Origin: Nitrospirota bacterium
GTDB taxonomy: Bacteria > Nitrospirota > 9FT-COMBO-42-15 > HDB-SIOI813
Assembly (NCBI GenBank): GCA_023248365.1
Contig: JAHFER010000011.1
Location: 1 to 26,254, forward strand
DNA: 26,254 nt
Direction: 5' to 3'
The notes beneath the pieces were generated by a model. That model had not been told where the DNA came from and ran no database searches. It saw nothing but the letters and a program-made list of their open reading frames with translations. A program made the position numbers and the translations under genes. This document shows, piece after piece, positions 6,471 to 26,254 of this stretch. The first letter of the stretch is position 1. Each line of letters opens with the position of its first letter.

Positions 6471-6686
6471 CTACCTTACCGGATCAAAACCGCCGGGATG
6501 AAAAGGATGACATCTTAGTAATCTGAAGATGACCTTACTCATACCTTTAATGGATCCATATTTTTGTATTGCGTCAATTGAATACTGAGAACAAGTGGGA
6601 TAAAACCTGCATGATGGCGGTTTTAAAATAGAGAAGCATTTCTGATATACAGAGATTAATAAAATCAAGAGTTTTTTTAAAGGCAT
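6471..6686 (-). CDS. yidD: Membrane protein insertion efficiency factor YidD
   Basis: [10 protein letters not shown] and [13 protein letters not shown] motifs. Confidence 0.96.
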
Positions 6687-6688
6687 GT

Positions 6689-7024: not shown

Positions 7025-7053
7025 CTGACCATATTATAAAGCCCATAGGGAGC

Positions 7054-7188
7054 TTAAACTGTCAGCTTAGCCCGTCCTTTGGCCCTTCTTCTGGCAATGA
7101 TCTTCCTTCCGTTTTTAGTCCTCATCCTAAGCCTGAATCCGTGAGTCCTTTTCCTGCTAAGGTTATGCGGCCTGTATGTTACTGACAT
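7054..7188 (-). CDS. rpmH: 50S ribosomal protein L34 (below the ORF-track length cutoff)
   Basis: Manual translation [44 protein letters not shown], with SD AAAGGAGGAG at 7191-7200. Confidence 0.97.
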
Positions 7189-7214
7189 AACTCCTCCTTT
7201 GAATAAAGAAGGAA

Positions 7215-7242
7215 ATTATAACTTAATTAGTTGAAATGTCAA
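7215..7242 (-). promoter_or_regulatory. sigma70 promoter of the rpmH operon
   Basis: TTGACA (7242-7237), 16-bp spacer, TATAAT (7220-7215) on the minus strand. Confidence 0.8.
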
Positions 7243-7261
7243 CTAATTTCTATTTACTTAT

Positions 7262-7290
7262 TTGAAACGTGATTTAAATAAGTTTATAAT
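7262..7290 (+). promoter_or_regulatory. sigma70 promoter of putA
   Basis: TTGAAA (7262-7267), 17-bp spacer, TATAAT (7285-7290). Confidence 0.75.
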
Positions 7291-7299
7291 CTCTTAAAT

Positions 7300-10314: not shown

Positions 10315-10315
10315 C

Positions 10316-10542
10316 AAGGCTATTTACCACAGAACACACAGAGAAAGATATTATAAATTAAAGAGAAACCTGTTTTCTCTGTGCACTCATTAATTGAATG
10401 AAATGCTTTTGATTAATCAACAAATTTAATACTTGAGAACACAGAGGACTACTTGAATTTACTATGTTTTTAGTTTTAAAATTTTTCCTCTGTGCGCTCT
10501 GTGGTTTTAGAATCGCTCAATTTGGGCACAAGGTAAGTTATG
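10316..10542 (+). repeat. 227-bp leader element, copy A, upstream of mnmE
   Basis: Terminal inverted repeats ACCACAGA-nnn-CACAGAG (10326-10343) and CTCTGTG-nn-CTCTGTGGT (10488-10505). About 80% identical by hand alignment to 11947-12173, up to the ATG. Confidence 0.9.
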
Positions 10543-11916
10543 GTTATCCAGGAAGAGACAATCTGTGCGATAGTTACTCCTCAGGGTATAGGAGGAATAA
10601 GCGTTATAAGGCTGAGTGGAAAAGATGCGATTGGTATCGCCTCCAGGCTTTTTCAAAAGAAGTCAGGTAAACCTATTATCAATGCCTCTACCCATACCCT
10701 TCATTACGGATTTATTGTGGACCCGGTTTCAGGGGAGAAAGTAGATGAAGTTATGGTGAGCATAATGAGATCACCGCATAGCTTTACATGTGAAGATGTT
10801 ATAGAGGTCAGTTGCCACGGCGGGGTTTTAATTTCTACAAAGGTTCTTGAGGCATTTATAAGAGAAGGGGCGAGACTTGGTGAACCTGGAGAGTTTACTA
10901 AAAGGGCCTTCTTAAACGGGAGGATTGACCTTGCCCAGGCAGAAGCGGTTATTGGTTTAATAAATGCTAAGACAGAAGCTGGAATGAAGTCTGCAATATG
11001 GCAGTTGGAAGGCAAATTATCTAAAGAAATCAATATGTTAAAAGATGAAGTGGTTGGAGTTATGACAGTTGTAGAGGCTTATATTGATTTTCCGGATGAT
11101 GATATTGATATTCCTGTTAATGACCTGACAGATCGTATTTCGATTGTCATTGGCAGGATTGAAAGGCTTATCGGAGGGTATTACAAAGGGAGGCCATTCA
11201 GGGAAGGGGTTTTAACCGCCATTGTGGGGCGGACAAATGTAGGAAAATCAAGTCTGCTTAATACCCTTATTGGAGAAGAACTGGCAATAGTAACACCTCA
11301 TCCCGGTACAACCAGAGATATTATAGACGGAATGGTGCATGTCTGCGGTATACCTCTCAGGCTTTTAGATACTGCTGGATTGCGTATAACAGAGGATGCG
11401 GTTGAAGAGGAAGGCATAAAGCGTATGTATAACTCCATTGATAAGGCTGAACTTATTTTACTTGTGCTTGATGTTAGTGAGCCGCTTACAGAGGATGATA
11501 AAAATATACTTGAACATATAAGAGAAAAGAAAAGGATTATTGTTGCTAATAAGGTTGATAAAGGAATTGTAATTGACAATGAACTTGTTGCGCAGGGCTG
11601 TCCGATAGTTCATACTTCTGTGCTTAACGGGGAGGGGATTGAGGAATTAAAAGGGATAATTAAACAGACTATAGCTGGAATGGGCGGGAAAGAGACAGAA
11701 GATGCTGCTGTTACAAAACTGCGTCATAAGATTGCACTTGAAGAGACAAAAAAAGAGTGTGAAATGTTTTTAGACACTTGTAACAAAGGGGTTCCGCTTG
11801 AAATTCAGGCCATCCATCTTCGCCGGGCAGTTGACTTCTTTGGTGAGATTACAGGCGTAGTTACTACAGATGATATTTTAAACAAGATATTTAGTGAATT
11901 TTGCATAGGCAAGTAA
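10540..11916 (+). CDS. mnmE: tRNA U34 modification GTPase MnmE
   Basis: GIGGISVIRLSG, SFTCEDVIEVSCHGG, GEFTKRAFLNGRIDL, GRTNVGKSS, GTTRD, DTAG, NKVD, and C-terminal FSEFCIGK. Confidence 0.98.
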   Translation: MVIQEETICAIVTPQGIGGISVIRLSGKDAIGIASRLFQKKSGKPIINASTHTLHYGFIVDPVSGEKVDEVMVSIMRSPHSFTCEDVIEVSCHGGVLISTKVLEAFIREGARLGEPGEFTKRAFLNGRIDLAQAEAVIGLINAKTEAGMKSAIWQLEGKLSKEINMLKDEVVGVMTVVEAYIDFPDDDIDIPVNDLTDRISIVIGRIERLIGGYYKGRPFREGVLTAIVGRTNVGKSSLLNTLIGEELAIVTPHPGTTRDIIDGMVHVCGIPLRLLDTAGLRITEDAVEEEGIKRMYNSIDKAELILLVLDVSEPLTEDDKNILEHIREKKRIIVANKVDKGIVIDNELVAQGCPIVHTSVLNGEGIEELKGIIKQTIAGMGGKETEDAAVTKLRHKIALEETKKECEMFLDTCNKGVPLEIQAIHLRRAVDFFGEITGVVTTDDILNKIFSEFCIGK

Positions 11917-11917
11917 A

Positions 11918-11933
11918 TGTTCCACGTGGAACA
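11918..11933. promoter_or_regulatory. parS centromere-like site 1
   Basis: Perfect palindrome TGTTCCACGTGGAACA matching the widespread parS consensus TGTTNCACGTGAAACA. It extends to a 24-bp palindrome at 11914-11937. Confidence 0.93.
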
Positions 11934-11946
11934 TTTAGAACCTAAA

Positions 11947-12173
11947 AAGGCGATTCACCACAGAGTACGCAGAGAAAGATATTATAAAGCAAACAAAAAA
12001 CTGCTTTTCTCTGTGTACTCATTAAGTGAATGAGATACGTTGCTTTAAACAACAAATTTAATACTTGAGCACGCAGAGAATTACTTGAGTTTTCTATGTT
12101 TTTAGTTTAATAATTTTTCCTCTGTGAACTCTGTGGTTTAGAAATCGCTAAACTTGGGTAGAAGGTTTATATG
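11947..12173 (+). repeat. 227-bp leader element, copy B, upstream of mnmG
   Basis: Inverted ends at 11957-11974 and 12120-12137. Colinear with copy A through the start codon. Confidence 0.9.
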
Positions 12174-14036
12174 TCAATATCAAGTTATGATGTAATAGTT
12201 GTTGGTGCCGGTCATGCCGGGTGTGAGGCTGCACTTGCGTCTGCAAGGATGGGATGCAAGACCCTTGTACTTACCTCCAATTTAGATAACATAGCCATGA
12301 TGTCCTGCAATCCAGCAATAGGGGGAATTGCAAAGGGTCATCTTGTCAGGGAGATAGATGCCCTTGGAGGTGAAATGGCAAAGGTTACAGACAGCACTGG
12401 AATACAGTTCCGTATGCTTAATACAAGCAAAGGCCCTGCTGTTCAGGCCATAAGGGCCCAGGTGGACAGAAATCATTATAAACGTGCTATGCGCTCTGTT
12501 CTTGAGGCACAGGATAACCTTAGTATAATTCAGGGTATGGCAGACAAACTCCTTATAAAAGAAGGGGTTGTAAGGGGCGTAAAGACCAATCTCGGGATTG
12601 AATATGAGGCGAAGGCTGTAATTCTTACAACCGGTACTTTTATGAGGGGATTAATTCATATTGGATTGAATAATTTTCCAGGAGGAAGGGCAGGGGATCT
12701 TCCATCATTAGGGCTGTCGGAAGATTTGGAACGGATTGGATTCAAATTAGGCAGGCTTAAAACCGGAACCCCCCCAAGACTAAATGCTAAGAGTATAGAT
12801 TTCAGCAATATGGCAGAGCAAAAGGGGGATGATCCTGTTATTCCTTTTTCATATACTACTGATAAGATTGAGAGGCCGCAGGTATCCTGTTATCTTACAT
12901 ATACATCTCCTGTAACTCATGAGATTATAAGGAAAAATCTTGATAAATCTCCTCTATACAGCGGGATTATAAAAGGGGTAGGGCCGCGGTACTGCCCTTC
13001 AATTGAAGATAAGGTAATGCGGTTTTCCCTGAAGGAGAAACATCAGGTATTTCTCGAACCAGAGGGGTTCGATACTGTAGAGATTTACGCAAATGGAATC
13101 TCTACAAGTCTGCCTGCAGATGTTCAGCTTGATATAGTCAGATCAATAAAAGGGCTTGAAAATGCAGAGATAATGCGGCCCGGATATGCCATTGAGTATG
13201 ATTTTGTTCCTCCGACACAACTAAAACCTACATTGGAAACTAAACTCATTACAGGTCTGTATAATGCCGGTCAGATTAATGGGACCTCCGGATATGAAGA
13301 AGCAGCAGCCCAGGGTATTATAGCAGGCATCAATGCGGCACTGAAGATTCAGGGGAGAGGGCCTTTTATCCTCGACAGGTCAGAGGCCTATATAGGTGTA
13401 CTAATTGATGATCTTATTACAAAAGGGACTCAGGAACCTTACAGGATGTTTACATCAAGAGCAGAGTACAGGCTTTTGCTTCGTCATGATAATGCTGATG
13501 CACGGCTTACTGAAAAAGGGTATAACATAGGCATGATTTCTCCTGAACATTATAAATTGTTCAAAGAAAAGAGGGGTGTTATTGATGGCGAGATAATGCG
13601 TCTCAGGAATTCAAGGGCAGGAAACAGGATATTTGTAAATGAAAAACTCAGAAGTATTAATACCGGAGAAATAATGGCGGATACAACTTTGGCCCAGTTA
13701 CTTCAGAGGCCGGAAATATTATATTATACCATTGAGAAAATATCACCTTCTGAACACCATCTTAACAGCGAAGTAAAAAAGTCTGTGGAAATAGAGGTAA
13801 AGTATGACGGATATATCAAACGCCAGTTGCAATCTATAGAAAGATTTAAGAATCTGGAAAATAAGCTCATCCCGGCTGATTTTGAGTATACTGGTACACC
13901 GGGTCTCTCAAGTGAAGTAGTAGAAAAACTTAACGCTATAAAACCGCTATCACTTGGGCAGGCCTCCCGTATCTCCGGAGTTACTCCGGCAGCAGTGTCT
14001 ATTATTGCCATTACCCTTGCAAAAAAAGCGAGATAG
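12171..14036 (+). CDS. mnmG: tRNA uridine-5-carboxymethylaminomethyl modification enzyme MnmG (GidA)
   Basis: GAGHAGCEAA, MSCNPAIGG.AKG.LVREIDALGG, GRLKTGTPPR, GPRYCPSIEDK, AGQINGTSGYEEAAAQG, EPYRMFTSRAEYRL. Confidence 0.98.
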   Translation: MSISSYDVIVVGAGHAGCEAALASARMGCKTLVLTSNLDNIAMMSCNPAIGGIAKGHLVREIDALGGEMAKVTDSTGIQFRMLNTSKGPAVQAIRAQVDRNHYKRAMRSVLEAQDNLSIIQGMADKLLIKEGVVRGVKTNLGIEYEAKAVILTTGTFMRGLIHIGLNNFPGGRAGDLPSLGLSEDLERIGFKLGRLKTGTPPRLNAKSIDFSNMAEQKGDDPVIPFSYTTDKIERPQVSCYLTYTSPVTHEIIRKNLDKSPLYSGIIKGVGPRYCPSIEDKVMRFSLKEKHQVFLEPEGFDTVEIYANGISTSLPADVQLDIVRSIKGLENAEIMRPGYAIEYDFVPPTQLKPTLETKLITGLYNAGQINGTSGYEEAAAQGIIAGINAALKIQGRGPFILDRSEAYIGVLIDDLITKGTQEPYRMFTSRAEYRLLLRHDNADARLTEKGYNIGMISPEHYKLFKEKRGVIDGEIMRLRNSRAGNRIFVNEKLRSINTGEIMADTTLAQLLQRPEILYYTIEKISPSEHHLNSEVKKSVEIEVKYDGYIKRQLQSIERFKNLENKLIPADFEYTGTPGLSSEVVEKLNAIKPLSLGQASRISGVTPAAVSIIAITLAKKAR

Positions 14037-14040
14037 GAAA

Positions 14041-14056
14041 TGTTCCACGTGGAACA
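14041..14056. promoter_or_regulatory. parS site 2
   Basis: TGTTCCACGTGGAACA, 4 bp after the mnmG stop codon. Confidence 0.93.
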
Positions 14057-14077
14057 TTAAGCATTCAGTTTGACAGA

Positions 14078-14117
14078 AAATAAAAAACCCTTATCAAATT
14101 AACACCTGATAAGGGTT
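14078..14117 (-). terminator. Rho-independent terminator for the small minus-strand ORF
   Basis: 11-bp stem AACCCTTATCA (14086-14096) / TGATAAGGGTT (14107-14117), followed on the minus strand by TTTTATTTT. Confidence 0.8.
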
Positions 14118-14127
14118 AGGATTAAGG

Positions 14128-14156
14128 TTGCATGAATACCTTGACTAATTTATAAT
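14128..14156 (+). promoter_or_regulatory. Candidate sigma70 promoter firing antisense into the small ORF
   Basis: TTGCAT (14128-14133), 17-bp spacer, TATAAT (14151-14156). Confidence 0.5.
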
Positions 14157-14245
14157 AAAATCTGTCCGCCGATTAACATACCTACTGCTAAAACCAGGGT
14201 AATTACAGCGTGGGCAATAAAAGCCTTTTTTTCATCTTTTTGCAT
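14150..14245 (-). CDS. 31-aa single-TM small protein (not in the ORF track)
   Basis: Manual translation MQKDEKKAFIAHAVITLVLAVGMLIGGQILL. Strong SD AAAGGAGGTGG upstream, an upstream TATAAT (14325-14320) and a downstream terminator. Confidence 0.7.
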   Translation of the reverse strand: MQKDEKKAFIAHAVITLVLAVGMLIGGQILL

Positions 14246-14396
14246 TATGTTTCCACCTCCTTTCATTTTCTTAATTTGAATATATTGTTTATTTTTATTT
14301 TCTTTATTCTTATGAGTTTATTATATTGATCCGGGATTAAAGGGAAATTAGAATGGGAAAATTAATCTTTATTCGTGACATTCGGTATTTTTCGAG

Positions 14397-14412
14397 TGTT
14401 ACACGTGGAACA
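14397..14412. promoter_or_regulatory. parS site 3
   Basis: TGTTACACGTGGAACA, 79 bp upstream of the parA start and near a TG-n-TACAAT extended -10 (14440-14448). Confidence 0.88.
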
Positions 14413-14491
14413 TAGTTGCTTCCCATTACCTATTGATTATGATACAATCTCTGAAATTATCTTTTTGTTAATAGTATAACTTATTGAATTT

Positions 14492-15268
14492 ATGGGAAAA
14501 ATCATTTCTATAACAAATCAGAAGGGTGGTGTAGGAAAGACCACTACGGCCATAAATATGGCCGCATCTCTTGCTGTTGCAGAGAAGTCTGTGCTTTTGA
14601 TTGATCTTGACCCTCAGGGTAATGCATCAAGCGGTTGCGGTATTGATAAAAACTCCCTAAGTGCATCAATATACCATGCCCTTACCGGTGAAAAGGATAT
14701 AAGGGATATTGTAGTGCCGACTGGGCTGAAATTTTTTAAACTTGTTCCTGCCAGCATAGATCTCATTGGCGCTGAGATAGAACTTATTGAAGCGGAGAAG
14801 CGGGAGTTTACCTTACAAAAGGCTATTGAGCCATTAAAAAAAGATTTCAATTATATTATTGTGGACTGTCCTCCTTCTCTTGGCTTACTTACAATAAATG
14901 CCCTTTCTGCTGCGGATTCTGTAATAATACCAGTGCAGTGTGAATTTTTTGCAATGGAGGGGTTGAGTCAGATAGTGAAGACCATTGATCTGGTACAGAA
15001 GTCTTTTAACAGGGAACTGATGATAGAAGGCATACTTCTCACCATGTTTGACAGCAGGAACAATTTGGCCCATCAGGTTTCTGAAGAGATTAGAGGGCAT
15101 TTTAAAGACATAGTATTTAAGAGTGTTATTCCAAGGAATGTAGCACTTGGGGAAGCGCCAAGTCATGGTAAACCAATAGTTTTGTATAACATCAATTCAA
15201 AAGGTGCACAGTCTTACCTGGAACTGGCCCTGGAGGTGATAAATAATGATAAAAAAGGCATTGGGTAG
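14492..15268 (+). CDS. parA: Chromosome partitioning ATPase ParA/Soj
   Basis: NQKGGVGKTTTAIN (deviant Walker A), IDLDPQGNAS, DCPPSLGLLTINAL, PVQCEFFAMEG, EAPSHGKP. Confidence 0.97.
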   Translation: MGKIISITNQKGGVGKTTTAINMAASLAVAEKSVLLIDLDPQGNASSGCGIDKNSLSASIYHALTGEKDIRDIVVPTGLKFFKLVPASIDLIGAEIELIEAEKREFTLQKAIEPLKKDFNYIIVDCPPSLGLLTINALSAADSVIIPVQCEFFAMEGLSQIVKTIDLVQKSFNRELMIEGILLTMFDSRNNLAHQVSEEIRGHFKDIVFKSVIPRNVALGEAPSHGKPIVLYNINSKGAQSYLELALEVINNDKKGIG

Positions 15269-16097
15269 GGGCTTAGGTACATTAATACCTCAAATGGACA
15301 CTGTTAAGGTTGAGGGTGTGCAATCTGTGTCTGAGATTGAAGTATCAAGGATAGTACCAAACAGATACCAGCCAAGGCACGTATTTGAAGATAAGAGCCT
15401 TGAAGAGTTGGCAGATTCAATAAAAAATCACGGAGTTATCCAGCCTGTGATTGTAAGACATCTTGATAATGGTTCATACGAACTTATTGCAGGTGAGCGG
15501 CGGTGGCGGGCCAGCCAGATTGCAGGGTTAAAAAAAATACCTGTTGTTGTTAAGGATATTAGTGATGAAAAATCTCTGGAAATTGCCCTGATAGAAAATC
15601 TTCAGAGAGAAAACCTTAACTCCATTGAAGCTGCACAGGGGTATCAGAGACTTCTAAATGAGTTTAATCTCACTCAGGAAGAGATAGCAGTAAGGGTTGG
15701 TAAGGATCGTTCTACTGTTGCGAATTATATGAGACTGCTGAGTCTTCCTGAGAAGGTAAGGGCTTATCTGTCAGGTTCAATACTTTCACCCGGACATGCC
15801 AAGGCTATACTTTCCATAACAGCTCACGGTGAGCAGGTAAAGTTTGCAGAGCATCTTGTGGCCAAAGGCGCTTCTGTCAGAGAGGCAGAGGCTTGGGTAA
15901 AGACCTGGGGTGTTCAGAAGAATAAAAAGAAGGTAATTGAAAAAAGAGACCCTTCATTTAGAGAGGTTGAAGAGAGGCTTCAGCGTATTCTTGGTACAAA
16001 GGTACGGATACATGAGGAAAAAAAAGGCGGAAAGATAGTGGTGGAATATTATACTCTGGATGATTTAAACAGAATACTGGAGTTAGTTGACAGGTAA
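15246..16097 (+). CDS. parB: Chromosome partitioning protein ParB/Spo0J
   Basis: KKALGRGLGTLI, PNRYQPR, GVIQPVIVR, LIAGERRWRA, IENLQRENL, HTH GKDRSTVANYMRLL. Confidence 0.97.
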   Translation: MIKKALGRGLGTLIPQMDTVKVEGVQSVSEIEVSRIVPNRYQPRHVFEDKSLEELADSIKNHGVIQPVIVRHLDNGSYELIAGERRWRASQIAGLKKIPVVVKDISDEKSLEIALIENLQRENLNSIEAAQGYQRLLNEFNLTQEEIAVRVGKDRSTVANYMRLLSLPEKVRAYLSGSILSPGHAKAILSITAHGEQVKFAEHLVAKGASVREAEAWVKTWGVQKNKKKVIEKRDPSFREVEERLQRILGTKVRIHEEKKGGKIVVEYYTLDDLNRILELVDR

Positions 16098-16103
16098 CGG
16101 AAG

Positions 16104-17195
16104 ATGTCAATGCCAGGGAAAAAGGTCTTAGTAGGAATGAGCGGCGGCATAGATAGTTCAGTAACCGCTATGCTTTTGGTTAAGCAAGGTTATGACGTTA
16201 CAGGTGCAACTCTAAAGATTTGGGAAGAAGGGGCCTATCTCGACGGAAAATGGCATGAGCGCTCCTGCTGTAAGATAGGGCTTGCAAAGTTTGCTGCGGA
16301 AAACTTAAAGATTCCTTATTTTGTGTGGGATGCCTATAAGGAATTCAGGCAAATAGTAGTTGATGACTTCTGTTCGGAATATATAAAGGGAAGGACGCCA
16401 AACCCATGTGTAAGATGTAATGAAAAGATTAAGTTTTCTCTCCTCCTTGAAAAGGCTGCCGGCATTGGTGTGGACTACGTTGCTACAGGCCATTATTCGC
16501 GTATAATCTATAATCCTGAAGATAAAAAATATCATCTTAAAAAGGGATTATACTCTGCAAAAGATCAAAGTTATTTTTTATACAGACTCTCGCAAGACCA
16601 ATTATCAAAAATTATGTTTCCACTTGGTGAATATAAAAAAGATGAGGTTTCTGAACTGGCAAAGACTCTTGACCTTCCTGTTGATGAGATCAAAGAGAGT
16701 CAGGAGGTATGCTTTGTTACAAGAGAGGGTTACCAGGAGTTCATCTCCAATTACCTTCCAGCTTCTGTAAATCCGGGAAGATTCGTTACAACTTCCGGAG
16801 ATGTATTAGGGGAACATAGAGGTATTGCCTTTTATACCGTTGGACAGCGAAGGGGGCTTGGCATAGCTGCTGGAGAACGGCTTTATGTAACACGCATTGA
16901 TACAACAAGGAATGAGGTAGTTCTGGGGACTGATGATGAATTATTGGCATCGGGACTTATAGCCGGTGATGTTCATACAATAAGCGGAAAACTATTTACA
17001 CAAAGCAGGGAGCTGCAAGCAAAAATAAGATACAGGAGTGAACCGGTAAAAGTATCTGTGGTCCCCTTTGAAGCCAGGCAGGTCAGAGTGCTCTTTGATA
17101 AACCCCAGCGGGCTGTTACTCCAGGACAGTCAATCGTGTTTTATGACGATGATGAGGTGATTGGAGGGGGAATTATTCAAGAAAGTAATGGGTAA
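16104..17195 (+). CDS. mnmA: tRNA-specific 2-thiouridylase MnmA
   Basis: GMSGGIDSS PP-loop, TPNPCVRCNEKIKF, ATGHY, KDQSYFL, ESQEVCF, YTVGQRRGLG, AVTPGQSIVFY. Confidence 0.96.
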   Translation: MSMPGKKVLVGMSGGIDSSVTAMLLVKQGYDVTGATLKIWEEGAYLDGKWHERSCCKIGLAKFAAENLKIPYFVWDAYKEFRQIVVDDFCSEYIKGRTPNPCVRCNEKIKFSLLLEKAAGIGVDYVATGHYSRIIYNPEDKKYHLKKGLYSAKDQSYFLYRLSQDQLSKIMFPLGEYKKDEVSELAKTLDLPVDEIKESQEVCFVTREGYQEFISNYLPASVNPGRFVTTSGDVLGEHRGIAFYTVGQRRGLGIAAGERLYVTRIDTTRNEVVLGTDDELLASGLIAGDVHTISGKLFTQSRELQAKIRYRSEPVKVSVVPFEARQVRVLFDKPQRAVTPGQSIVFYDDDEVIGGGIIQESNG

Positions 17196-17297: not shown

Positions 17298-18812
17298 TCA
17301 CGGATGTTCTCTGCGGGCCAGTTGCTTTTTTATAACTGCTTTTCTAAGTTCTTCATACTGAAGGCCGTAGCCGCCTTCGAGTAGCTTTCTTGAACTCATA
17401 ATAAGTGAAATTGTAACAGGCGAGTCAAAGGCGGTCTCTAACAATGTGGACCCGCCTCCTGTTGATCGAAACCCCATATCGAGTTTTCTCCTGCTCGCCT
17501 CTTCATAGGAAGATGTTACAAAATTTGTACTGCCGCCGCCGATCTCTTTTACAGCATCCCTGTTTTTATCAATAGCATCAATCATCCTGTGTGTTCCCTC
17601 AACATACCTTTCATCATCTACACCGAGAGGACCATTCCAGACAATAGTCGCTGCCTTTTCTACTACACTTGTATAAAGCTCCTTTGTCTTATCACCAATA
17701 TCCACAATCTCATCATCGTCGTTCAGTTCATGTAATAGCACAGACTTTAAGATAGCCCCGTCCCTTTCAATTTCGTAGTCTACAGGAAGGATTAATCTTC
17801 TCCCCTGAAGAGGATTGGGGTCTTTAAACTGGAAGTCGTTATATAGTCTTAATAAACCCTGTGAAAGGTTTATCTCTTCTGCATTATACTGATAACCGCT
17901 TTCTGCAGCAGACTCAAAACCCTTGAGCCGCACTTCACGCAGCCCTCTAAGGTCTTTCTTAATCTCTCCGGGCAGCCCTCTAAGGTCTTCCTCTTTTAAC
18001 ATTGTCAACTGTGCATAAACAAAGGCATACATCAGATGACCGCCTACAAGTACGTAATCAACAAGCCTCTCTCCTATATGAAGATTTAAATCCGGGTTAA
18101 ACATATTGCTCCAGTGGGTTGTCTTTTCTGCTCTAAAGATTGTTCTCATAAGCTGGAGACTATCCTCGACCTTATCTCCACCTACGATTACAATGTAAGG
18201 TGAGCCAGGTTTTTTTATCTTCATGTGTGCCTCAATCTCATCAACAAGGAGGCTTCCTGCAAGTCCGGGAATGAATTCATGGATTCTGTTGGATGAGGTC
18301 TCTTTTCTGTGGGCTGTTCCAAATGAATTCTGAATGCTTAAATCTACAACAGAAGTCAAAGCCTTTGCCAGACTTTCCTCATTCTTTGTTTCATCTGTGT
18401 GAAATCTGATATTGTCGAGGAGGGGGATTGCCCCTCTTTTAAAAAGGTTCTTTAAATAAGCAGCATTAAATTGTTCTGGAGAAAAAGCACCTTTGTCAGG
18501 GTCAAACCTGATAATCTCTATCTCTTTTCCCAGGGCACTTGAGAGGGGAGGGCATACAGGGTCAAGTGTTAGTGACGGATCAAATCCCTTTGGTCTTCCA
18601 AAGTGCGTTACTAATAAAGGGATAACACCGGCGTTAATCAGTTCCCTGATAAATGGAGCGGCCATAAGTATTCTGAATGCGTCAGCCACATGCGGGTTAT
18701 TTCCACTATCATGGATAATAGGGACATTGAAGTCAGATTTTACAAGGGCAATCTTGCCTTCGAGTTCTCTTAAATAATCAGAGGCCTTTAAATAACCTAA
18801 TGCTCCGTCCAT
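17298..18812 (-). CDS. pgk: Divergent phosphoglycerate kinase-family protein (504 aa)
   Basis: SDFNVP, THFGRP, DNIRF, FGTAHR, WNGP and STGGG motifs. It has large insertions and altered nucleotide-site motifs, so the activity is uncertain. Confidence 0.75.
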   Translation of the reverse strand: MDGALGYLKASDYLRELEGKIALVKSDFNVPIIHDSGNNPHVADAFRILMAAPFIRELINAGVIPLLVTHFGRPKGFDPSLTLDPVCPPLSSALGKEIEIIRFDPDKGAFSPEQFNAAYLKNLFKRGAIPLLDNIRFHTDETKNEESLAKALTSVVDLSIQNSFGTAHRKETSSNRIHEFIPGLAGSLLVDEIEAHMKIKKPGSPYIVIVGGDKVEDSLQLMRTIFRAEKTTHWSNMFNPDLNLHIGERLVDYVLVGGHLMYAFVYAQLTMLKEEDLRGLPGEIKKDLRGLREVRLKGFESAAESGYQYNAEEINLSQGLLRLYNDFQFKDPNPLQGRRLILPVDYEIERDGAILKSVLLHELNDDDEIVDIGDKTKELYTSVVEKAATIVWNGPLGVDDERYVEGTHRMIDAIDKNRDAVKEIGGGSTNFVTSSYEEASRRKLDMGFRSTGGGSTLLETAFDSPVTISLIMSSRKLLEGGYGLQYEELRKAVIKKQLARREHP

Positions 18813-20006
18813 TTATCCCCCTTTAAGGATTCCTAATTGTTTACCTGCCGTCCTGAAAGTCTCCAGGGCAAAATCAAGATCTCCTCTGGTATGAGCCGCT
18901 GAAATCTGAACCCTTATTCGGGCTTTTCCCTTTGGAACTACAGGATAACTGAATCCTACCACATAAACACCTGACTCAAATAATCTTCTTGCCATTTCTG
19001 CCGCCAGTTTTTCTTCATAGAGCATAACAGGCACAATTGGATGCACGCCTTCTCTGATATTATAGCCCATTCCGCTGATCTCTCTCCTTAAGTATGCGGT
19101 ATTTTCCATGAGTTTATCCCTTAAACCTGCTGTCTTTTCTATGATACTTAGCGCTTCCAATACAGCCGCCGCTATCACAGGCGGGAGGGAATTTGAAAAT
19201 AGATATGGTCTTGATCTCTGCCGCAGCATGGAGATTATCTCCTTGTGACTGCTTGTAAATCCTCCTGAAGCACCCCCAAGTGCCTTACCAAGGGTACTTG
19301 TAATAATATCTACCTTTCCCATTACATTACAATATTCTGCAGACCCTCTTCCGGTTGGACCAAAAAAGCCTGTGGCATGAGAGTCATCAACCATTACAAG
19401 TGCATCATATTTCTCCGCCAGCGTACAAATATCTTTTAGAGGTGCTACATCCCCATCCATCGAAAATACACCATCCGTAGAAATAATTCTGAACCTTGCA
19501 CTGCCAGCCTCTTTTAAATTTTCTTCGAGATCATTCATGTCCATATGTTTGAATCTTAAACGTCCTGCCTTACATAATCTTATTCCATCAATTATAGAGG
19601 CATGGTTTAGTTCATCAGAAAGTACGGCGTCTCTTTCATCAAATAATGCCTCAAAGAAACCTGTGTTTGCGTCAAAGCAAGAGGTGTAAAGAATAGACTC
19701 TTCCATATTGAGAAATGAAGAAAGCCTTTTCTCCAGTTCTTTGTGTATTTCCTGTGTCCCGCAGATAAACCTCACAGAGGACATGCCGAATCCCCATTTT
19801 TCCAGTCCGGACTTTGCCGCCGCTATAATATCAGGATGGTTAGACAGGCCTAAGTAATTATTGGCACACATGTTGATGACTTGTTTGCCTTTAACGTTTA
19901 TATAAATACCCTGAGCGGAAGCAAGTAAACGCTCTTCTTTGTAAAGACCTGCCTCCTGAATACTTAGCAGCTCTTTAAGGAGATGTTCTTTAATAGATAA
20001 ATACAT
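18813..20006 (-). CDS. kbl: 2-amino-3-ketobutyrate CoA ligase (glycine C-acetyltransferase)
   Basis: [70 protein letters not shown]. Adjacent to tdh. Confidence 0.95.
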
Positions 20007-21067
20007 TATTCCAAATAAAGTACGACCTTAACCGCCTTTTTGGGCCTCTGCAGAAGCAGTTCAAATCCCTTTTCAAAATCATCAAAGGGTAGTTTGTGTG
20101 AAATGATTGGTGATATGTCAAGTCTGCCTGACTTAAGCAGGTTATGCATTCTGTACCAGGTATCAAATAAGATTCTACCATTTATTCCGTAGATAATAAT
20201 CCCCTTGAATATGATCTGATTTGTAATGTCAACGGTGACGGGGTTTGAGAAGAGCCCAAAGGCAGATAGTCTCCCCCCTTTTCTAAGCAAATTAAGCCCC
20301 TGTTCTAATCCCTTTGCACTTCCTGACATTTCGAGGACAACATCTACCCCTGTCCCCTCAGTTCTGCCCATTATTGAGGATTCAAGTCCTTCTTCATCCC
20401 CATGAAATACAGCATCTGCCCCCATTTTCTTTGCAACGTCGAGCCTCGGTTTATTATGTCCTATAAGGCCGATCCAGCTTGCACCGGAGGCTCTTGCAAC
20501 ACCAACAGAAAAAAGGCCAATAGGCCCGTCTCCAATAATCAGAACTGATTTTCCAGTGACAGGCTCAACGAGCGTACAGTATAAGGCATTTCCGAGAGGG
20601 TCCTGAACAGATGCAAACTCCGGAGGCATATTAATATCGTTTTTCCAGACCCCTCTTGCAGGCACAGAAACGTATTCTGCAAAGCAACCATTTATATCAA
20701 TGCCAAGAATCTTAAGATTACTGCATATATGCTGCTGGCCGATCCTGCATTGTAAGCAATGACCACAGAAAATATGGCTGTCAGCAGTGACATAGTCTCC
20801 CACAGAGAAGCCGCTTACGCCCTCTCCAACCTTTACAACATCTCCAGCAAATTCATGACCGGTTATTAGAGGAGTGGTTTTTATTCTGTTCTGAGCCCAG
20901 GAGTTCCACCTGTATATATGCAGGTCAGTGCCGCAGATCGAGGTTGTTCGTACTTTTATCAGTATCTCGCCATGTTTTTCAGAGGGGACTTCAACAGATG
21001 TCATTTCAAGACCTGAATGTGGACCGGTCTTTACTATGGCCTTCATCTTTTCAGGCAGTACTATCAT
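20006..21067 (-). CDS. tdh: L-threonine 3-dehydrogenase (Zn-dependent)
   Basis: [16 protein letters not shown].....C Zn cluster, DPLGNA, G.GPIG, LEMSG, GINGR. Confidence 0.93.
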
Positions 21068-23990
21068 TGGTTTTGAAATAATCGGTTATGAGATTTCTTA
21101 AGTCAGTTGCGGAAAAGGGCTTTCCGAAATAGTGTACCATGCTTTCCTTTAAGAATTTCTGTGTGTCCGGGTTTATTGAATCTCCTGTGGTAAATATGAT
21201 CTTTTTTATCAGTTCAGGTCTTGTATTTTCCAGTTTCCTGTAAAATTCTTTTCCATCCATATTAGGCATTCTTATATCGCTGATTATGAGGTCATACTCT
21301 TTATTTTTTATCTTATCCATAGCAATCCTTGCATCAGATGCTGTACAGGCATGATGTCCAATACTTTCAACTATAGCCTTTACAAGATCAAGTATTGTTT
21401 GCTCATCATCTACTACAAGAATGTTTTTCTTTCCCTTTATTTCAATTCCTGTGTCCAAAGTTTCTCTTAAATTATTTTTCGCCACATCTGACTGAGATAT
21501 AAGGGGTAATTCAATGACAAAAGTAGTGCCTTCTCCAGGCCTGCTTTTTACATAAATCTTTCCTTTATGTTCTTTAATAATCCCGTATGAAACACTCAAT
21601 CCGAGACCCGTTCCCTTACCAACCTCTCTTGTAGTAAAGAACGGGTCAAAAATCTTTTTGACGTTTGATTCAGAGATTCCGGGACCTGTATCTGTAAAGC
21701 TGGCCTTTATAACTTGTTCATTGAGTTCGGATTTGATGGTTAGCACGCCCTTTCCACCTTTTTCCCTCATAGCGAGGTGGGCGTTATTTACTATATTTAA
21801 AAAGACCTGCTGGATTGTGTATGGGTCTACCATTGTGTAGGGAAGATGGTTGTCCAGCTCAGTGATGACTGCAATGTTGTCTACAGTAAGCTGATAACTC
21901 TTGAGTTCTAATGTATGCATTACAATATCATTAATATTTACGTACTGTTTTTCAATCTTATGCTGCCTTGCAAAGCTTAGAAGATTTTCAATTATCTTTT
22001 TACATCTCAGGGCAGCATTATTAACCTTTCCAAGTTTTTCCTTCAGGCTATTGTCTCCGGAAGATTCAAGCAGAAGTTCACAATATCCTATTACTCCGGT
22101 GAGTGGATTGTTGAGTTCATGTGCCACGCCTGACAGTATTTCTCCGAGTGAGGAGAGTTTTTCAGCCTGAATGAGCTGCTCTTTCAGCATGGTCTCCTCT
22201 GTAACGTCCCTGATATATTCCACCCTGTGAAGCAATCTGCCGTTACTGTCACATACAGGAAACATGTATCTTTCCAACACCCTGTTATCATTTGTATGAA
22301 CACGATTTCTATGGGGTATAGGGGTTTTCCAGTTTGTTGCATTACATTCAGGTATTACTTTATCAAAACCGTATACCAGGTTGAATAACTTTTTTCCTAC
22401 TACCATTTCCTCAGTCAGGTTGAATGCCTCAAGAAAGGATTTATTAACCTCGAGGACAGTACAATCAGGGGCAAGGAGGAATATATAATCTTTGATACCA
22501 TTATAAATTATCTGAAGCTGATCACGTGTCCTCTTTAATTCTTCTTCCTCCTGCATTATCCGCATATTTGCATCAAACAGCTCATTTGATTTTTTCTCAA
22601 GCTCTTCATTCAGTATGGTTAGCTCCTCATTAGCTGACTGAAGCTCTTCTGCCTGGGATTGAGACTCTTCCAATGAGACCTCAAGCTCCTGATTGGTTGA
22701 TATTAATTTATCATTCAGGGCAGATAACTCATTAGTCTTTTGTCCCATTTCTGAAAGATGGACTTCTCGTTCTCTTGTAGTTTCCTTAATCTCTATGATC
22801 ATTTCATTAAAAGACCTTGAAAGTGTGGAGACCTCATCCCTTGAATCTTCTGAGGCTTCCAAAGGTATAACATCCATTTTCCCTGAGGCAGTCTCTCTTG
22901 CCCTCCCTGCAAGTACCTCAAGTGGACTTGTAATCTTCCTTGTTACATAAAATGCGGTTCCTCCGGCAAAAAGTATGCTAAGCCCGGTGATAAACAATAT
23001 ACTGATTCTGTTACTCTTGTGAAGGATTGTAAAGTTTGATTCCGGTACGCTTACAGACAGCGAACCGATTACCTTACCTTTATTATCTTTGATTGGGGAA
23101 TAGGCGCCAATGCGGTCAGAATTAAAAATAGAAATCAATCCTCTGTAACTCTTGCCGGCATTAATTACATTCATGACTTCAAGGGGCAGCTTAGTACCGA
23201 TGGCCCTTTCACCTGCTTCAGTTGTTCCTGTTGTAGCTATTCTTACACCGTTATTTGCTATCGTGGCCATGGCCCCGGGGATCTTTTGCATTATCGTATC
23301 AGGTACGAAGTTGTCTTTGTTTAAAATGTCTGCTGTAACAATTGCTCCTACAACTTTGTCCTGAGCGAAAACCGGCACAACCACTATTACTGATAGTGCT
23401 TTAGTTTCTATTGAATAACCTGGATTGTATTCGCCCTTCCGGTCATTTAATACAACAGGGATAGCAATCTCTTCAGTTAGCTTTTCATCCTCCTTGAGCA
23501 GCACTTCCCTCGGAATAACTTCTGTTGAGATAACAGTATCTCCGCTTGCCAGGGCCTTTTTTACTACACCGTTTACCTCAAAAATATCACCTGAGCTTTT
23601 GCTGTTTAACCGTGCTATAACCATGCCCTCTTTATCCACTATAGTCCAGATGTCAACGTAGGGCCTCTTAATTTTCCAATGGGACATTTTATTTCTCAGG
23701 AATTCCTTGTCCCTTCCCACTATAGCATTTTCTACAAGTTCAGCGGCCTGAAGCATACCGTATTTCATCTGGTCAGCCCGTACATAGTATTGGAGCCATG
23801 CGGCATCAAGGTTCCGTGAATTGGTATTCTCAATCTCCTGATGTACCTTTGTTGCAATAAGTCTTTCAGAGGATATCGCAAACAGTATCAATGGTATGAT
23901 TACAACAAGCAGGAAGGCTGCTGACAGCTTAGTTTTCAGAGAGGCATTCGTAATAATTTGTTTTATTCCCTTTGCAGGCATAAAGTTCAA
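21051..23990 (-). CDS. Membrane-bound hybrid sensor histidine kinase (TM-Cache-like-TM-HAMP-coiled coil-PAS-HisKA-HATPase-REC)
   Basis: H-box [11 protein letters not shown]-box [29 protein letters not shown], and receiver [22 protein letters not shown]. Confidence 0.93.
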
Positions 23991-23993
23991 TAC

Positions 23994-24851
23994 CTAAATC
24001 TTCTGGTATATCTTTTCCTTTCTAAAAACCTCTGCAAATCTGTTCCTTAATGCAGGCGGGATAACTTCACTTTTCCCAAGTATTAAGAAGCCGCCTTTAT
24101 CAAGGGCATACCAGAACTTCTCAATAACCTTTTCCTGCAGGTCCTTTTCAAAATAGATAAGCAGGTTCCTGCATATTGCAATATCTATATGGGATAGATG
24201 GATATTGGACACAATGTTGTGAATACCAAAGGTTACAAGATTTCTTATCTGGGATATAAGCTGATAACTATTATCAATAGATTTGAAGTAATGATTTTTA
24301 AAATAAAGAGATACATTTTGCAGAAAGGGTTCATTATAGACTCCTCTCCTCGCCAGTTCAATTGATATTTCATCAATGTCAGTGGCGAATATCTTAATAT
24401 TACAGGGAAATTCTCCTCCGGTATTCCCGTTTCCGTTATGACCGCAATAATATCTCTCTCTTTCATTTGCAAGTAACAGAGCAAGGGAGTATGGTTCCTC
24501 TCCTCTTGCACAGCCGCTGCTCCATACTCTAAGGGTGCTTTGGTTTTTTGATTTTAACCGTCCGGCTGTTTCAGGTATCACATATTTTTCTATTTTTTGG
24601 AAGACTTCAGGGTCACGGAAAAATTCGCTTACCTTTATCGTAATCTGATTAAACAGATAATGAAATTCCTTTGGTTCGGTATCAAGAAGGTTTATGTAGT
24701 GTTCATAAGGTAGTCTTGAGAAGGCAAGTCTTCTTTCAATGCACCGTCTAAGGCTTGATTTCCTGTATCTTCGGAAGTCCCACCCTCTTTGGCAGTACAT
24801 CTTATCAAGGATAATGTCTATGTGTTCTTCTGAGAGTGCAGGTTCAGCCAT
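23994..24851 (-). CDS. cheR: CheR-family protein-glutamate O-methyltransferase (stand-alone)
   Basis: VSEFFRD, RVWSSGCARGEEPYS, FATDID, DIAICRNLLIYF, GGFLILGKSE. The start was reassigned to the ATG at 24851, which has a purine-rich SD. Confidence 0.9.
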   Translation of the reverse strand: MAEPALSEEHIDIILDKMYCQRGWDFRRYRKSSLRRCIERRLAFSRLPYEHYINLLDTEPKEFHYLFNQITIKVSEFFRDPEVFQKIEKYVIPETAGRLKSKNQSTLRVWSSGCARGEEPYSLALLLANERERYYCGHNGNGNTGGEFPCNIKIFATDIDEISIELARRGVYNEPFLQNVSLYFKNHYFKSIDNSYQLISQIRNLVTFGIHNIVSNIHLSHIDIAICRNLLIYFEKDLQEKVIEKFWYALDKGGFLILGKSEVIPPALRNRFAEVFRKEKIYQKI

Positions 24852-24893
24852 TGTTTCCCCTTTCCCCTCTTTTCTACCGAATAAAGAGTAGCC

Positions 24894-24923
24894 ATAATAA
24901 CAGAGTATTTGCAGAGAGGTCAA
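24894..24923 (-). promoter_or_regulatory. Candidate sigma70 promoter of the cheR-HK-tdh-kbl-pgk run
   Basis: TTGACC (24923-24918), 18-bp spacer, TATTAT (24899-24894) preceded by an extended -10 TG. Confidence 0.55.
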
Positions 24924-25013: not shown

Positions 25014-25346
25014 ATGATAGTAGAAGTATCTGTAGCTGTTATAGCCGCATGTTTCGTGTTGATAGTTTTCAGGTTGTACACGTTGAGTATGCGGGTAGAG
25101 GAGACAATTAAACGGGTGGAAGAGTTTTTGTTGAGAATGGAAACAGATATAAGGCCTGTATTATATGATGCAAGAGATGTGATGAATGATATGAAGGGAT
25201 TAGTTGAAACAGCGAAACAGAGCACAAAACAGGTTGATTACATAATAGAAGAAGTGGCAAGTCCTGTCCGGAAAGTTGGGATATTCCTTAAGGCATTACG
25301 GGCAGGGTTAAACGCATTGTTAAAAAAAAGGGAAGGAGGTGAGTGA
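25014..25346 (+). CDS. DUF948 (YoxC-like) membrane-anchored coiled-coil protein
   Basis: N-terminal TM helix followed by amphipathic helices, in the typical pairing upstream of a YtxH gene. Confidence 0.7.
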   Translation: MIVEVSVAVIAACFVLIVFRLYTLSMRVEETIKRVEEFLLRMETDIRPVLYDARDVMNDMKGLVETAKQSTKQVDYIIEEVASPVRKVGIFLKALRAGLNALLKKREGGE

Positions 25347-25347
25347 T

Positions 25348-25692
25348 ATGTGTGATCATGGAAAAGGTGAAAGTCTGGTATTCTTAATGGTAGGAGGGCT
25401 TATTGGCGCCGGGATTGCTTTATTGTATGCACCTAAAGCAGGAAAAGAGACAAGAGATGATATACGCAGAATTGCCTCAAAAGGGGCAGAGAAGTTTATG
25501 ACAGAAAAAGATGCCATACAAAAAAGACTCTCTGAGCTTATGCACGAGATAAGCAGCAGGACAGAAGAACTTGTCCGTGGGGGAGTGCAGCTTGCTGAAG
25601 ATAAAAAGCGTGAAATCCTTGCAGCCATTCAGGCGGCAAAGAAGGCATATGATGAAGAGACACGCAAGCTTGAGGCTGAGAGGGAATCTTAA
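25348..25692 (+). CDS. YtxH-domain protein
   Basis: FLMVGGLIGAGIALLYAPKAGKETRDDI signature. The ATG at 25348 is 8 bp after AAGGAGG; the ORF track uses GTG 25339. Confidence 0.85.
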   Translation: MCDHGKGESLVFLMVGGLIGAGIALLYAPKAGKETRDDIRRIASKGAEKFMTEKDAIQKRLSELMHEISSRTEELVRGGVQLAEDKKREILAAIQAAKKAYDEETRKLEAERES

Positions 25693-25774: not shown

Positions 25775-26254
25775 CTATGGTAGATGGAGCAACATGGAGA
25801 CGACCTCCATCCTGGTATTTACGCAGAGTTTTGTCATTATACTCTTGAGATGGTCTTTAACTGTATATTCACATATATGAAGGCGTTGGGAAATTTCTTT
25901 ATTTGAAAGGCCTTCTAAAAGCAAGCCTACAATTTCCACTTCCCGATGAGTCAAACCATATACCCTTCGGACATAGTCAAAATCAATCATCTTTCTATTT
26001 TGGGAGATCTGTTCGATCAACACCAGAATGTGTTGACTATGGTTGCTGCTGCTAAGGAGAAAGGATCGAAAATAATAGTCTCCATTATCCGTAGAGATGT
26101 GAGGAAGCGAATCATCAGAACGTGGTGAAAGATTCCCTCCCTGGACTCCATTAAGTATTTCCCTTAACTTTTCATTGAATTCAGAAGGAATTATAGATGA
26201 GATAAAATCCCGCGCATTATTGTTAAAGTAAATGACCTCTCCTTCAAGGTTCAT
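25775..26254 (-). CDS. LuxR-family HTH transcriptional regulator, 5' end probably beyond the window
   Basis: LTHREVEIVGLLLEGLSNKEISQRLHICEYTVKDHLKSIMTKL. The ORF runs to the window edge. Confidence 0.85.
   Translation of the reverse strand: MNLEGEVIYFNNNARDFISSIIPSEFNEKLREILNGVQGGNLSPRSDDSLPHISTDNGDYYFRSFLLSSSNHSQHILVLIEQISQNRKMIDFDYVRRVYGLTHREVEIVGLLLEGLSNKEISQRLHICEYTVKDHLKSIMTKLCVNTRMEVVSMLLHLP

Follow-up and report, generated by a model that had tools for sequence, protein, structure and literature searches.

A stand-alone CheR-type methyltransferase and the hybrid sensor histidine kinase encoded directly after it in a Nitrospirota bacterium probably constitute a two-gene "methyl-accepting coiled-coil" (MAC) unit, in which the CheR would methylate a Glu-Glu heptad ladder of the kinase itself. 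We assign this reading a probability of about two in three; the computed tests of it all came out in its favour and they support it. The pairing is of a kind already described, belonging to the MAC class of Wuichet and Zhulin (2010) as two citing papers outline it, and it has a precedent in the RsbK-RsbM system. Its local twists are the lack of a dedicated CheB, the location of the ladder between the HAMP and PAS domains, and the conserved linkage to tdh-kbl.

The window, that is, the whole stretch of DNA analysed (26,254 nucleotides), carries the following features, all on the minus strand.

23994..24851, minus strand: cheR, a stand-alone CheR-type protein-glutamate methyltransferase of 285 aa from the ATG at 24851, the likely start
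21051..23990, minus strand: hybrid sensor histidine kinase of 979 aa (translation, Pfam architecture, spacing)
23016..23870, minus strand: Cache-type extracytoplasmic sensor of the kinase, about aa 41-325 (Pfam sCache_3_3 E 4e-21, dCache_3 E 3e-7)
22785..22946, minus strand: HAMP domain, aa 349-402 (Pfam E 9e-7)
22539..22748, minus strand: Glu-Glu heptad ladder, a candidate methyl-accepting coiled coil, aa 415-484 (heptad print-out, shuffles)
22566-22691, minus strand: ladder core QELEVSL...NELFDAN, aa 434-475 (heptad print-out)
22194..22514, minus strand: PAS domain after the ladder, aa 493-599 (Pfam PAS_9 E 4e-9, PAS_4 E 1e-7)
21501..22148, minus strand: kinase core, HisKA aa 615-676 with H-box and HATPase_c aa 722-830 (Pfam)
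21087..21422, minus strand: C-terminal receiver domain (REC), aa 857-968 (Pfam Response_reg E 1.3e-22)
20006-21067, minus strand: tdh-like zinc dehydrogenase (Pfam)
18813-20006, minus strand: kbl-like aminotransferase (Pfam)
17298-18812, minus strand: PGK-like protein (Pfam)

The longest open reading frame for cheR extends over 23994-24923, and its TAG stop codon (23994-23996) is followed after 3 nt by the TTG of the kinase at 23990, which agrees with the sequence-only reading that cheR lies 3 bp upstream of a membrane hybrid kinase. An ATG is found 9 nt further into the kinase gene than this TTG. Pfam matches give the kinase the domain order Cache-HAMP-ladder-PAS-HisKA-HATPase-REC, and the Cache region is flanked by two hydrophobic segments. 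Downstream, the tdh-like, kbl-like and PGK-like genes form the same tight run (17298..21067, minus strand) and are linked to the kinase by synteny only. The absence of MCP, CheA, CheW and CheB from the neighbourhood was also borne out: none of these domains, including CheB_methylest, was found on the contig carrying the window, and all are present elsewhere in the genome, where MCP, CheW/CheA and CheB domains occur on contigs C238, C291, C260 and C175. Matches to MCPsignal (PF00015) are confined to C238 and C291, with none in the window or in the Pfam list of the kinase.

A seven-residue ladder had been proposed at about 22575-22735; the core maps close to this, to 22566-22691, and the register continues from aa 415 to 484. 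Position a is mostly occupied by Asn, position d by Leu, and positions b and c by Glu-Glu, and the autocorrelation of Glu and Gln within the ladder peaks at lags 7 and 14. Only two in 20,000 shuffles of the segment, which is itself already rich in Glu, matched the ladder score. Tandem Repeats Finder detected no tandem repeat at the DNA level beneath the ladder, and a recent repeat expansion was rejected as its origin because there is no 21-nt DNA repeat. Among orthologues 25 of the 42 core positions are invariant, with a mean conservation of 0.89. Although the kinases of the two families in which the pair occurs (f1 and f2, see below) are only about 40% identical overall, the ladder core is kept, and at the domain level no segment of the kinase is better conserved, the core being on a par with the catalytic boxes; the most conserved stretch of the whole orthologue alignment is the H-box window. 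When the ladder detector was applied to the 3,055 open reading frames of the window's genome, it returned only the kinase and the methylation helix of one MCP.

The methylation consensus of chemoreceptors, attributed to Alexander and Zhulin in 2007, reportedly reads [ASTG][ASTG]xx[EQ][EQ]xx[ASTG][ASTG]. Strict matches to it occur two times and once in the MCPs encoded by the genome and nowhere in the kinase, which carries one half-site, EELQSA at aa 448. The best candidate methylation site is the pair E448-E449 within this half-site. As in the methylation helices of Tar and Tsr, [EQ][EQ] pairs are spaced by heptads on a coiled coil and small residues lie two positions further on, such that EELQSA in the kinase may be compared with EELSAS in one of the genome's own MCPs. 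Unlike those chemoreceptors, the kinase lacks the MCPsignal domain, the strict ten-residue consensus and coupling to CheW/CheA, and its ladder would pair as two parallel helices, in contrast to the antiparallel four-helix bundle of chemoreceptors.

The pairing recurs in other genomes. It was found in two families, f1 and f2, of one phylum, probably the Nitrospirota, and wherever genomic context exists cheR lies directly upstream of the ladder kinase, in seven f1 genomes besides that of the window and in five f2 genomes. For three loci (L035-L037) the adjacent kinases were missed by the detector, as their stop-to-stop reading frames overlap cheR, and they were confirmed by eye. A conserved neighbourhood of cheR and ladder kinase with no MCP or CheW nearby, as envisaged from the sequence of the single locus, exists in both families. 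A profile search in 401 sampled genomes of the phylum recovered the full ladder-PAS module in f1 and f2 only; hundreds of further matches covering only PAS-HisKA (query about 45-195) were judged to be generic kinases and were excluded from the count of ladder proteins. Downstream of the kinase, four f1 loci (L030, L033, L037 and L270) carry two open reading frames of tdh and kbl size, the first of these being confirmed as tdh by tblastn in genome G003 only. In f2 the tdh-kbl run is not kept and a CNNM/CorC gene lies upstream of cheR.

Genomes G007 and G009, which are 98-99% complete and share a genus with the carriers G004 and G010, have neither cheR nor the kinase. In G003 both genes are broken: aa 108-202 are missing from cheR, and the kinase has a frameshift as well as a loss of aa 200-652, whereas tdh, which comes next, is undamaged. 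The two genes have been lost, or have decayed, together and not with the chemotaxis genes. There is, moreover, no CheB dedicated to the pair; in the 99% complete genome G004 the single CheB is located in the chemotaxis cluster.

Two pattern scans for the ladder motif across 185,579 species genomes each yielded at least 600 matching stretches, more than 440 of which in each scan were confirmed as relatives, distributed over many phyla. The scans gave at least 157 ladder loci, and among the matches listed CheR is fused or adjacent in 150 of 157: it is fused in 148, of which 131 also carry CheB, and adjacent in two, while for the other seven a contig end makes the context of CheR non-evaluable. 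Among the matches listed, therefore, no ladder locus with complete context is without CheR, and the EELQS[AT]NE ladder does not occur there separately from a fused or adjacent CheR. The statement of the sequence-only reading that CheB-CheR fusion proteins contain EELQSxNEEL coils was confirmed as well. These 157 loci are not independent events, since most belong to one fusion family, and the association of ladder and CheR is partly inherited by descent.

Several known systems can be compared with the pair. MAC2, introduced by Wuichet and Zhulin (2010), comprises methyl-accepting coiled-coil proteins with a separate CheR/CheB according to two citing papers, and its profile HMMs reportedly exist only in MiST 3.0. 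As far as it is defined in those papers, the present locus shares with it a histidine kinase carrying a Glu-rich heptad coiled coil together with HisKA and HATPase in the same protein, a CheR of non-chemotaxis lineage encoded beside the kinase, and a locus free of CheA, CheW and MCP, and differs from it in having no CheB associated with the pair.

The CheB-CheR fusion proteins, MAC1, which we take to correspond to the KEGG K13924 type, show the layout CheB-CheR_N-CheR-PAS-ladder-PAS_10-.... Their ladder is homologous to that of the kinase, with E33/E34/Q36, E40/E41/L42 and N46/E47/E48 invariant in a joint alignment; a PAS domain likewise follows the ladder, and their CheR is the nearest lineage to that of the window. 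They differ in that the window's CheR is a separate protein without a CheB domain and the kinase has a membrane Cache sensor and HAMP at its N-terminus. Moreover, the Glu-Glu pair is kept in only about three to four heptads here, compared with six to ten in the fusions.

In vitro, RsbM, an orphan CheR-type enzyme of B. cereus, transfers methyl label from 14C-SAM to the hybrid kinase RsbK (PMC4574943). There too, the hybrid kinase is a membrane protein, has its receiver at the C-terminus and lies beside an orphan CheR-type methyltransferase with no cognate esterase. RsbK is organised as CHASE3-HAMP-GAF-S-helix-HK with the methylated helix directly before the kinase core (PMC4574943), whereas the window's kinase, Cache-HAMP-ladder-PAS-HK, has no GAF domain and leaves about 130 residues between the end of its ladder and the H-box. 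According to the part of PMC4951495 available, the cfcABCDE cluster of Pseudomonas putida similarly couples a multisensor hybrid kinase, CfcA, to CheR-type adaptation enzymes, a CheR/CheB pair, that play no part in chemotaxis, but it includes CheB and a CHASE3/GAF kinase, unlike the present locus, and no methylation of CfcA is reported there.

Prediction of the CheR-kinase complex, which had been suggested as a check, gave a score of 0.46 against 0.02 for the best of three controls. Of 78 solved complexes, 51 reach the mark for such scores, as do 2 of 108 mismatched pairs; at 0.60 or under, only 5 of the 78 solved complexes do, and all four passing mismatches (of 180) fall there. Passes in the range of 0.46 are wrong more often than not, except where the pairing was already probable. 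In the model, ladder residues 423-448 lie against the basic helix of CheR_N (R54, R60) and against CheR residues 253-257, within the NLLIYF stretch of its methyltransferase domain. The prediction weakly favours the pairing and on its own is not evidence of binding.

One might suppose that the CheR is an ordinary chemotaxis methyltransferase serving MCPs encoded elsewhere, and that its adjacency to the kinase is incidental. It is the sole CheR found in the assembly, and the genome encodes two MCPs, CheA, two CheW and CheB. However, the assembly is 78% complete, and contig C175 is the tail of a chemotaxis cluster, cut at cheB, where relatives carry a separate CheR within a cheR-RR-cheY-cheW-cheA-cheB-cheW-MCP cluster. 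The genome lacks a cluster CheR because the contig breaks there, and an argument for an MCP role from its being the only CheR in the genome was rejected for this reason. Genome G001, of the same genus and 100% complete, has an 83% orthologue of the window's CheR alongside two further CheRs that belong to chemotaxis clusters; a fusion protein with a CheB domain occurs in it as well. Moreover, although the product matches Pfam CheR (PF01739) at E 1.3e-48 over profile positions 2-190 of 195, with a weak CheR_N match, it scores 94.6 bits on the NCBIfam CheR equivalog against a cut-off of 435. The CheR tree shows a 99/99 split which separates it from all 22 CheRs of chemotaxis clusters, and the grouping with canonical MCP-associated enzymes that would have spoken against kinase methylation was not found. 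On its own side are ten kinase-paired CheRs forming one clade (90/92), seven CheB-CheR-ladder fusions and a few others, two of which (L041 and L060) also adjoin ladder kinases; for L058 and L067, on the same side, the ladder detector found no ladder protein nearby. With the gene also being lost along with the kinase and not with the chemotaxis genes, a chemotaxis role is quite improbable.

It is unlikely, though a less distant prospect, that the ladder is a structural signalling helix or docking element, inherited with cheR from a CheB-CheR fusion ancestor, while the CheR acts elsewhere, either at a different position in the kinase or on a different protein. The ladder and PAS of the kinase align with the ladder and PAS_10 module of the fusions, and co-inheritance alone could therefore account for the linkage; absence of the strict MCP methylation consensus points the same way. 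Against this, the solvent-exposed Glu pairs at b and c stay invariant between families whose kinases otherwise differ so much, and a mere linker would not be so tightly conserved. In the modelled interface the ladder faces the NLLIYF stretch of CheR, and the methylated element of RsbK is the equivalent signalling helix. Decay could also be envisaged, the pair being a remnant that no longer serves a function in this organism. It is broken in G003 and absent from G007 and G009, and only one of three conserved cysteines survives in the PAS domain of the window's kinase. Nevertheless, both reading frames are intact, the SAM-binding motif, H-box, G-boxes and receiver Asp region are present, and the ladder core departs from the family consensus at two or three positions only, none of them invariant, which leaves a decaying remnant very improbable.

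If the CheR methylates the kinase, as we favour, it would use SAM to modify surface-exposed Glu residues in the dimeric coiled coil, E449 being the first candidate and E442 the next. This coil would be the helix that joins the Cache sensor and HAMP, on the input side, to the PAS domain and kinase core and relays the signal from the former to the latter. Its heptads mostly have Asn at a and carry Glu-Glu at b and c, a composition that should make it marginally stable; neutralisation of the charges would then alter how it packs, which would set the gain or baseline of kinase output. The sequence-only reading had allowed for adaptation, which is doubtful since no dedicated demethylating CheB accompanies the pair; for the same reason, methylation would probably act as a slow set-point or licensing modification, by analogy with RsbK-RsbM of B. 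cereus, and not in fast, chemotaxis-like adaptation. Further, and speculatively, the pair could be a MAC variant lacking CheB, with methylation of the HAMP-to-PAS coil, either one-way or reversed slowly, setting the sensitivity of a Cache sensor, possibly of amino acids, that governs tdh-kbl; we consider this version unlikely.

MAC-type kinases are very widespread, occurring in many phyla, and none of them has been characterised, according to a 2022 statement. If kinase methylation is correct, the separate-enzyme form should be handier than the fusions of more than 1000 aa, as it offers a small enzyme (285 aa), a well-defined substrate helix and assays free of interference from an esterase. 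It would also illustrate how modules of enzyme and substrate split and recombine with new sensor domains. Should the tie to tdh-kbl hold, a chemotaxis-derived covalent memory would be connected to the control of a metabolic operon, that of threonine catabolism, in the Nitrospirota. More generally, if CheR methylates the ladder, covalent tuning in the style of chemotaxis extends to ordinary two-component sensors.

Within the window, cheR ends in a TAG that is followed, after 3 nt, by the TTG of the kinase ORF, with an alternative ATG 9 nt further in. Together with the Pfam layout, this bears out the arrangement proposed in the sequence-only reading, with cheR directly 5' of a membrane hybrid kinase at a 3-nt gap. 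The cheR product matches the complete CheR SAM-binding domain (PF01739, E 1.3e-48) and, weakly, CheR_N; the kinase carries an N-terminal hydrophobic segment, a Cache-type sensor and a second hydrophobic segment. The features, from ORF reading and Pfam matches, are:

23994–24923, minus: cheR, longest ORF; probable start ATG at 24851, giving 285 aa
21051–23990, minus: hybrid histidine kinase, 979 aa
kinase, between the hydrophobic segments: Cache-type sensor (sCache_3_3, E 4e-21; dCache_3)
kinase aa 349–402: HAMP
kinase, between HAMP and PAS: about 90 residues matched by no Pfam profile, the ladder
kinase aa 493–599 (22194–22514, minus): PAS
kinase aa 615–676: HisKA
kinase aa 722–830: HATPase_c
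kinase aa 857–968: receiver
17298–21067, minus: tdh-like, kbl-like and PGK-like genes after the kinase, frames overlapping or nearly abutting

The Glu-Glu ladder, with its 7-residue spacing between HAMP and PAS, was upheld by a 70-residue print-out in sevens beginning at kinase residue 415, by shuffles of the already Glu-rich segment, of which 2 in 20,000 matched its score, and by E/Q autocorrelation, with maxima at lags 7 and 14. The six heptads described earlier correspond to aa 434–475 (22566–22691) and the register continues over 415–484 (22539–22748). In nearly all heptads one core position is Leu, the other is mostly Asn, and the Glu-Glu pair follows Asn at positions b and c, which, given this register, would be solvent-exposed. 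No DNA-level tandem repeat was found beneath the ladder, and a crude ladder detector applied to the 3,055 ORFs of the window genome matched only the kinase and the methylation helix of an MCP on contig C238. The likeness to chemoreceptors is real yet partial, since the kinase carries only one half-site, EELQSA at E448-E449, and did not match the ten-residue methylation consensus reportedly defined by Alexander and Zhulin in 2007, whereas strict sites, such as ASASEELSAS, occur in the genome's own MCPs. By this comparison, E449 would be the best candidate methyl acceptor, followed by E442.

Orthologues of cheR show 55–83% identity to the window copy in its own family, f1, and about 40–45% in f2, a second family of the phylum, and each is followed by a 960–1040-aa kinase with a conserved 32-residue ladder sequence. 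Searching 401 phylum genomes with a ladder-PAS profile gave full-length matches in 7 of 10 f1 genomes, all 6 f2 genomes and no others, the other matches covering the PAS-HisKA part only. Two extra f2 genomes (G044, G051) also carry cheR directly upstream of the kinase, and two further copies are interrupted by contig ends. The expected conserved neighbourhood, cheR upstream of a ladder kinase, is thus present in both families. Within genus g4, G004 and G010 carry both genes, neither was found in G007 (98% complete), and in G009 (99% complete) the kinase was not found and cheR was detected only as a 45-residue matching fragment. In G003 (L038, G003:C7; 95% complete) cheR lacks aa 108–202, and the kinase, frameshifted near aa 72, is missing aa 200–652; tdh, the next gene, is intact and 77% identical. 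This joint retention, absence and decay indicates that the two genes behave as a single unit. Across the kinase orthologues, no domain-level segment is better conserved than the ladder core (mean 0.89; 25/42 positions invariant), and a 21-residue ladder window ranks alongside the H-box and G2-box. The orthologues also keep three PAS cysteines (KKC...GC....EC; alignment columns 105–125), a pattern suggestive of a metal or redox site; in the window PAS the first two are replaced by Leu and Phe, and the last Cys alone remains.

It could be argued that cheR is simply the chemotaxis CheR of the cell, given that the window assembly (1.89 Mb, 342 contigs, rated 78% complete) yields two MCPs, CheA, two CheW, one CheB and a single CheR, that of the window. 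This argument does not stand, as the chemotaxis cluster is broken at a contig end. The cluster order cheR-RR-cheY-cheW-like-cheA-cheB-cheW-ORF-MCP is common to four relatives (G001, G004, G006 and G007), and contig C175 of the window genome carries cheB, cheW and the next ORF with 76%, 87% and 71% identity to their counterparts in G001, which is of the same genus and 100% complete. C175 ends within cheB, which puts cheA to cheR in a gap of the assembly. Five CheR homologues occur in G001: an 83% orthologue of the window cheR, two within chemotaxis clusters, one CheB-CheR fusion and one more. Moreover, the window CheR scores 94.6 bits against a cut-off of 435 for the NCBIfam CheR equivalog. In a tree of 45 CheR domains from the phylum (IQ-TREE), a split supported 99/99 places 10 kinase-paired CheRs (a single clade, 90/92) and 7 from CheB-CheR fusions (100/99) opposite all 22 CheRs whose genes lie no more than 6 kb from CheA, CheW, CheB or MCP genes, thereby separating the paired enzymes from the canonical MCP-associated CheRs with which they might have grouped. 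The CheRs of L041, L042, L058, L060 and L067 also lie on the kinase-paired side. Those of L041 and L060 adjoin kinases with Glu-pair heptad helices (PilJ-HAMP-GAF-helix-HisKA and GAF-helix-HisKA), layouts reminiscent of the Bacillus cereus kinase RsbK; for L058 (G030:C21) and L067 (G016:C138), neither che genes nor, with the ladder detector, a ladder protein were found within 6 kb.

Coils of the EELQSxNEEL type do occur in CheB-CheR fusions, as had been stated: their Pfam layout is CheB_methylest-CheR_N-CheR-PAS-ladder-PAS_10, and a joint alignment with the window ladder has invariant columns at EE.Q, EEL and NEE. Two pattern scans of one genome per species (185,579 species; EELQS[TA]NE, EEL[QE][SK]x[NT][EN]EL, EEL[QE]SANE and LNE[ED]L[ED]KK) each gave more than 440 confirmed matches, the best 80 of each yielding 157 distinct loci from many phyla, which were searched with CheR and CheB HMMs built from sequences of the present analysis. 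Among these best matches, CheR is fused to the ladder in 148/157 loci, with CheB in the same reading frame in 131 of the 148 (most others end at a contig end or adjoin a CheB ORF), and is adjacent in 2/157, while 7/157 end at a contig end. No ladder in complete context lacked CheR among the 157, which argues against such ladders being common without a neighbouring cheR, although a single fusion family accounts for most of these loci, which are, therefore, not independent events. In G001, L040 (G001:C53:2883-5957) encodes a 1025-aa CheB-CheR-ladder-PAS_10-PAS protein without a kinase domain, with a 596-aa ORF after it; no similar fusion was found in the incomplete window assembly.

A model of CheR with two copies of kinase residues 396–500 scored 0.46, against 0.02 for the best of three controls, in a range (0.60 or below) where the mark was reached by 5/78 solved complexes and by all 4 passing mismatches (of 180); overall, 51/78 solved complexes and 2/108 mismatched pairs reached it. 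The predicted interface comprises kinase residues 423–448, including E435, E437, E441, E442 and E448, and R54, S56, S57 and R60 of the basic CheR_N helix RRYRKSSLRR, with additional contacts to N253-Y257 and S285-P290 in the methyltransferase domain; this face recognises receptor methylation helices in Salmonella CheR. The prediction weakly suggests that CheR binds the ladder.

In f1, tdh, kbl and a PGK-like gene come after the pair, their frames overlapping or nearly abutting. The kinase stop overlaps or abuts the tdh-like gene; other f1 genomes likewise have tdh/kbl-size ORFs 3' of the kinase, as does a second kinase copy in G010 (L270). In f2 no such ORFs follow the kinase, and a CNNM/CorC transporter gene precedes cheR. 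This gene order in f1 hints at a possible connection of the sensor with threonine or glycine metabolism. Upstream of cheR, a minus-strand frame running off the window end (25775–26254) encodes a C-terminal GerE/LuxR helix-turn-helix, probably that of a response regulator, through which the kinase could act; it belongs to a different operon, and two plus-strand genes, DUF948 (25014–25346) and YtxH (25339–25692), lie between. Elsewhere, 1933–3378 (plus) encodes a 481-aa protein made up almost throughout of RTX calcium-binding nonapeptide repeats, with 14 matched stretches, in a region where GC (0.51) and GC skew are raised; 4863–17195 carries yidC, PutA (7300–10314), mnmE, mnmG, parA, parB and mnmA, a set typical near replication origins, and the GC skew changes sign near 17000.

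The linkage, conservation and phylogeny of the pair are observed. For methyl transfer, its sites and its effect on the kinase, we infer that, most likely, the neighbouring CheR methylates ladder glutamates, which would alter how the marginally stable coiled coil, with its Asn core, packs and thereby set kinase output. Methylation would be more a set-point than fast adaptation because no dedicated esterase is present; no CheB accompanies the pair, and the single CheB of G004 (99% complete) lies within the chemotaxis cluster. Comparable systems are known. The hybrid kinase RsbK of B. cereus is methylated on its signalling helix by RsbM, a CheR-type enzyme, as detected with 14C-SAM; RsbM is described as 'an orphan methyltransferase' that has no cognate esterase, and deletion of the only CheB had no effect (PMC4574943). 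In Pseudomonas putida, the gene cluster of the kinase CfcA includes a CheR/CheB pair with no role in chemotaxis (PMC4951495). A 2022 preprint describes methyl-accepting coiled coils (MAC) that either incorporate CheB and CheR domains (MAC1) or are associated with them (MAC2). Local to the window pair are an enzyme encoded by a separate gene with no CheB alongside, a ladder placed between HAMP and PAS and not, as in RsbK, next to the kinase core, input from a Cache sensor and, in f1, the tdh, kbl and PGK-like genes that come after it. Judged from sequence, the pair is a genuine and well-conserved member of this already known kind, represented by MAC and RsbK-RsbM.
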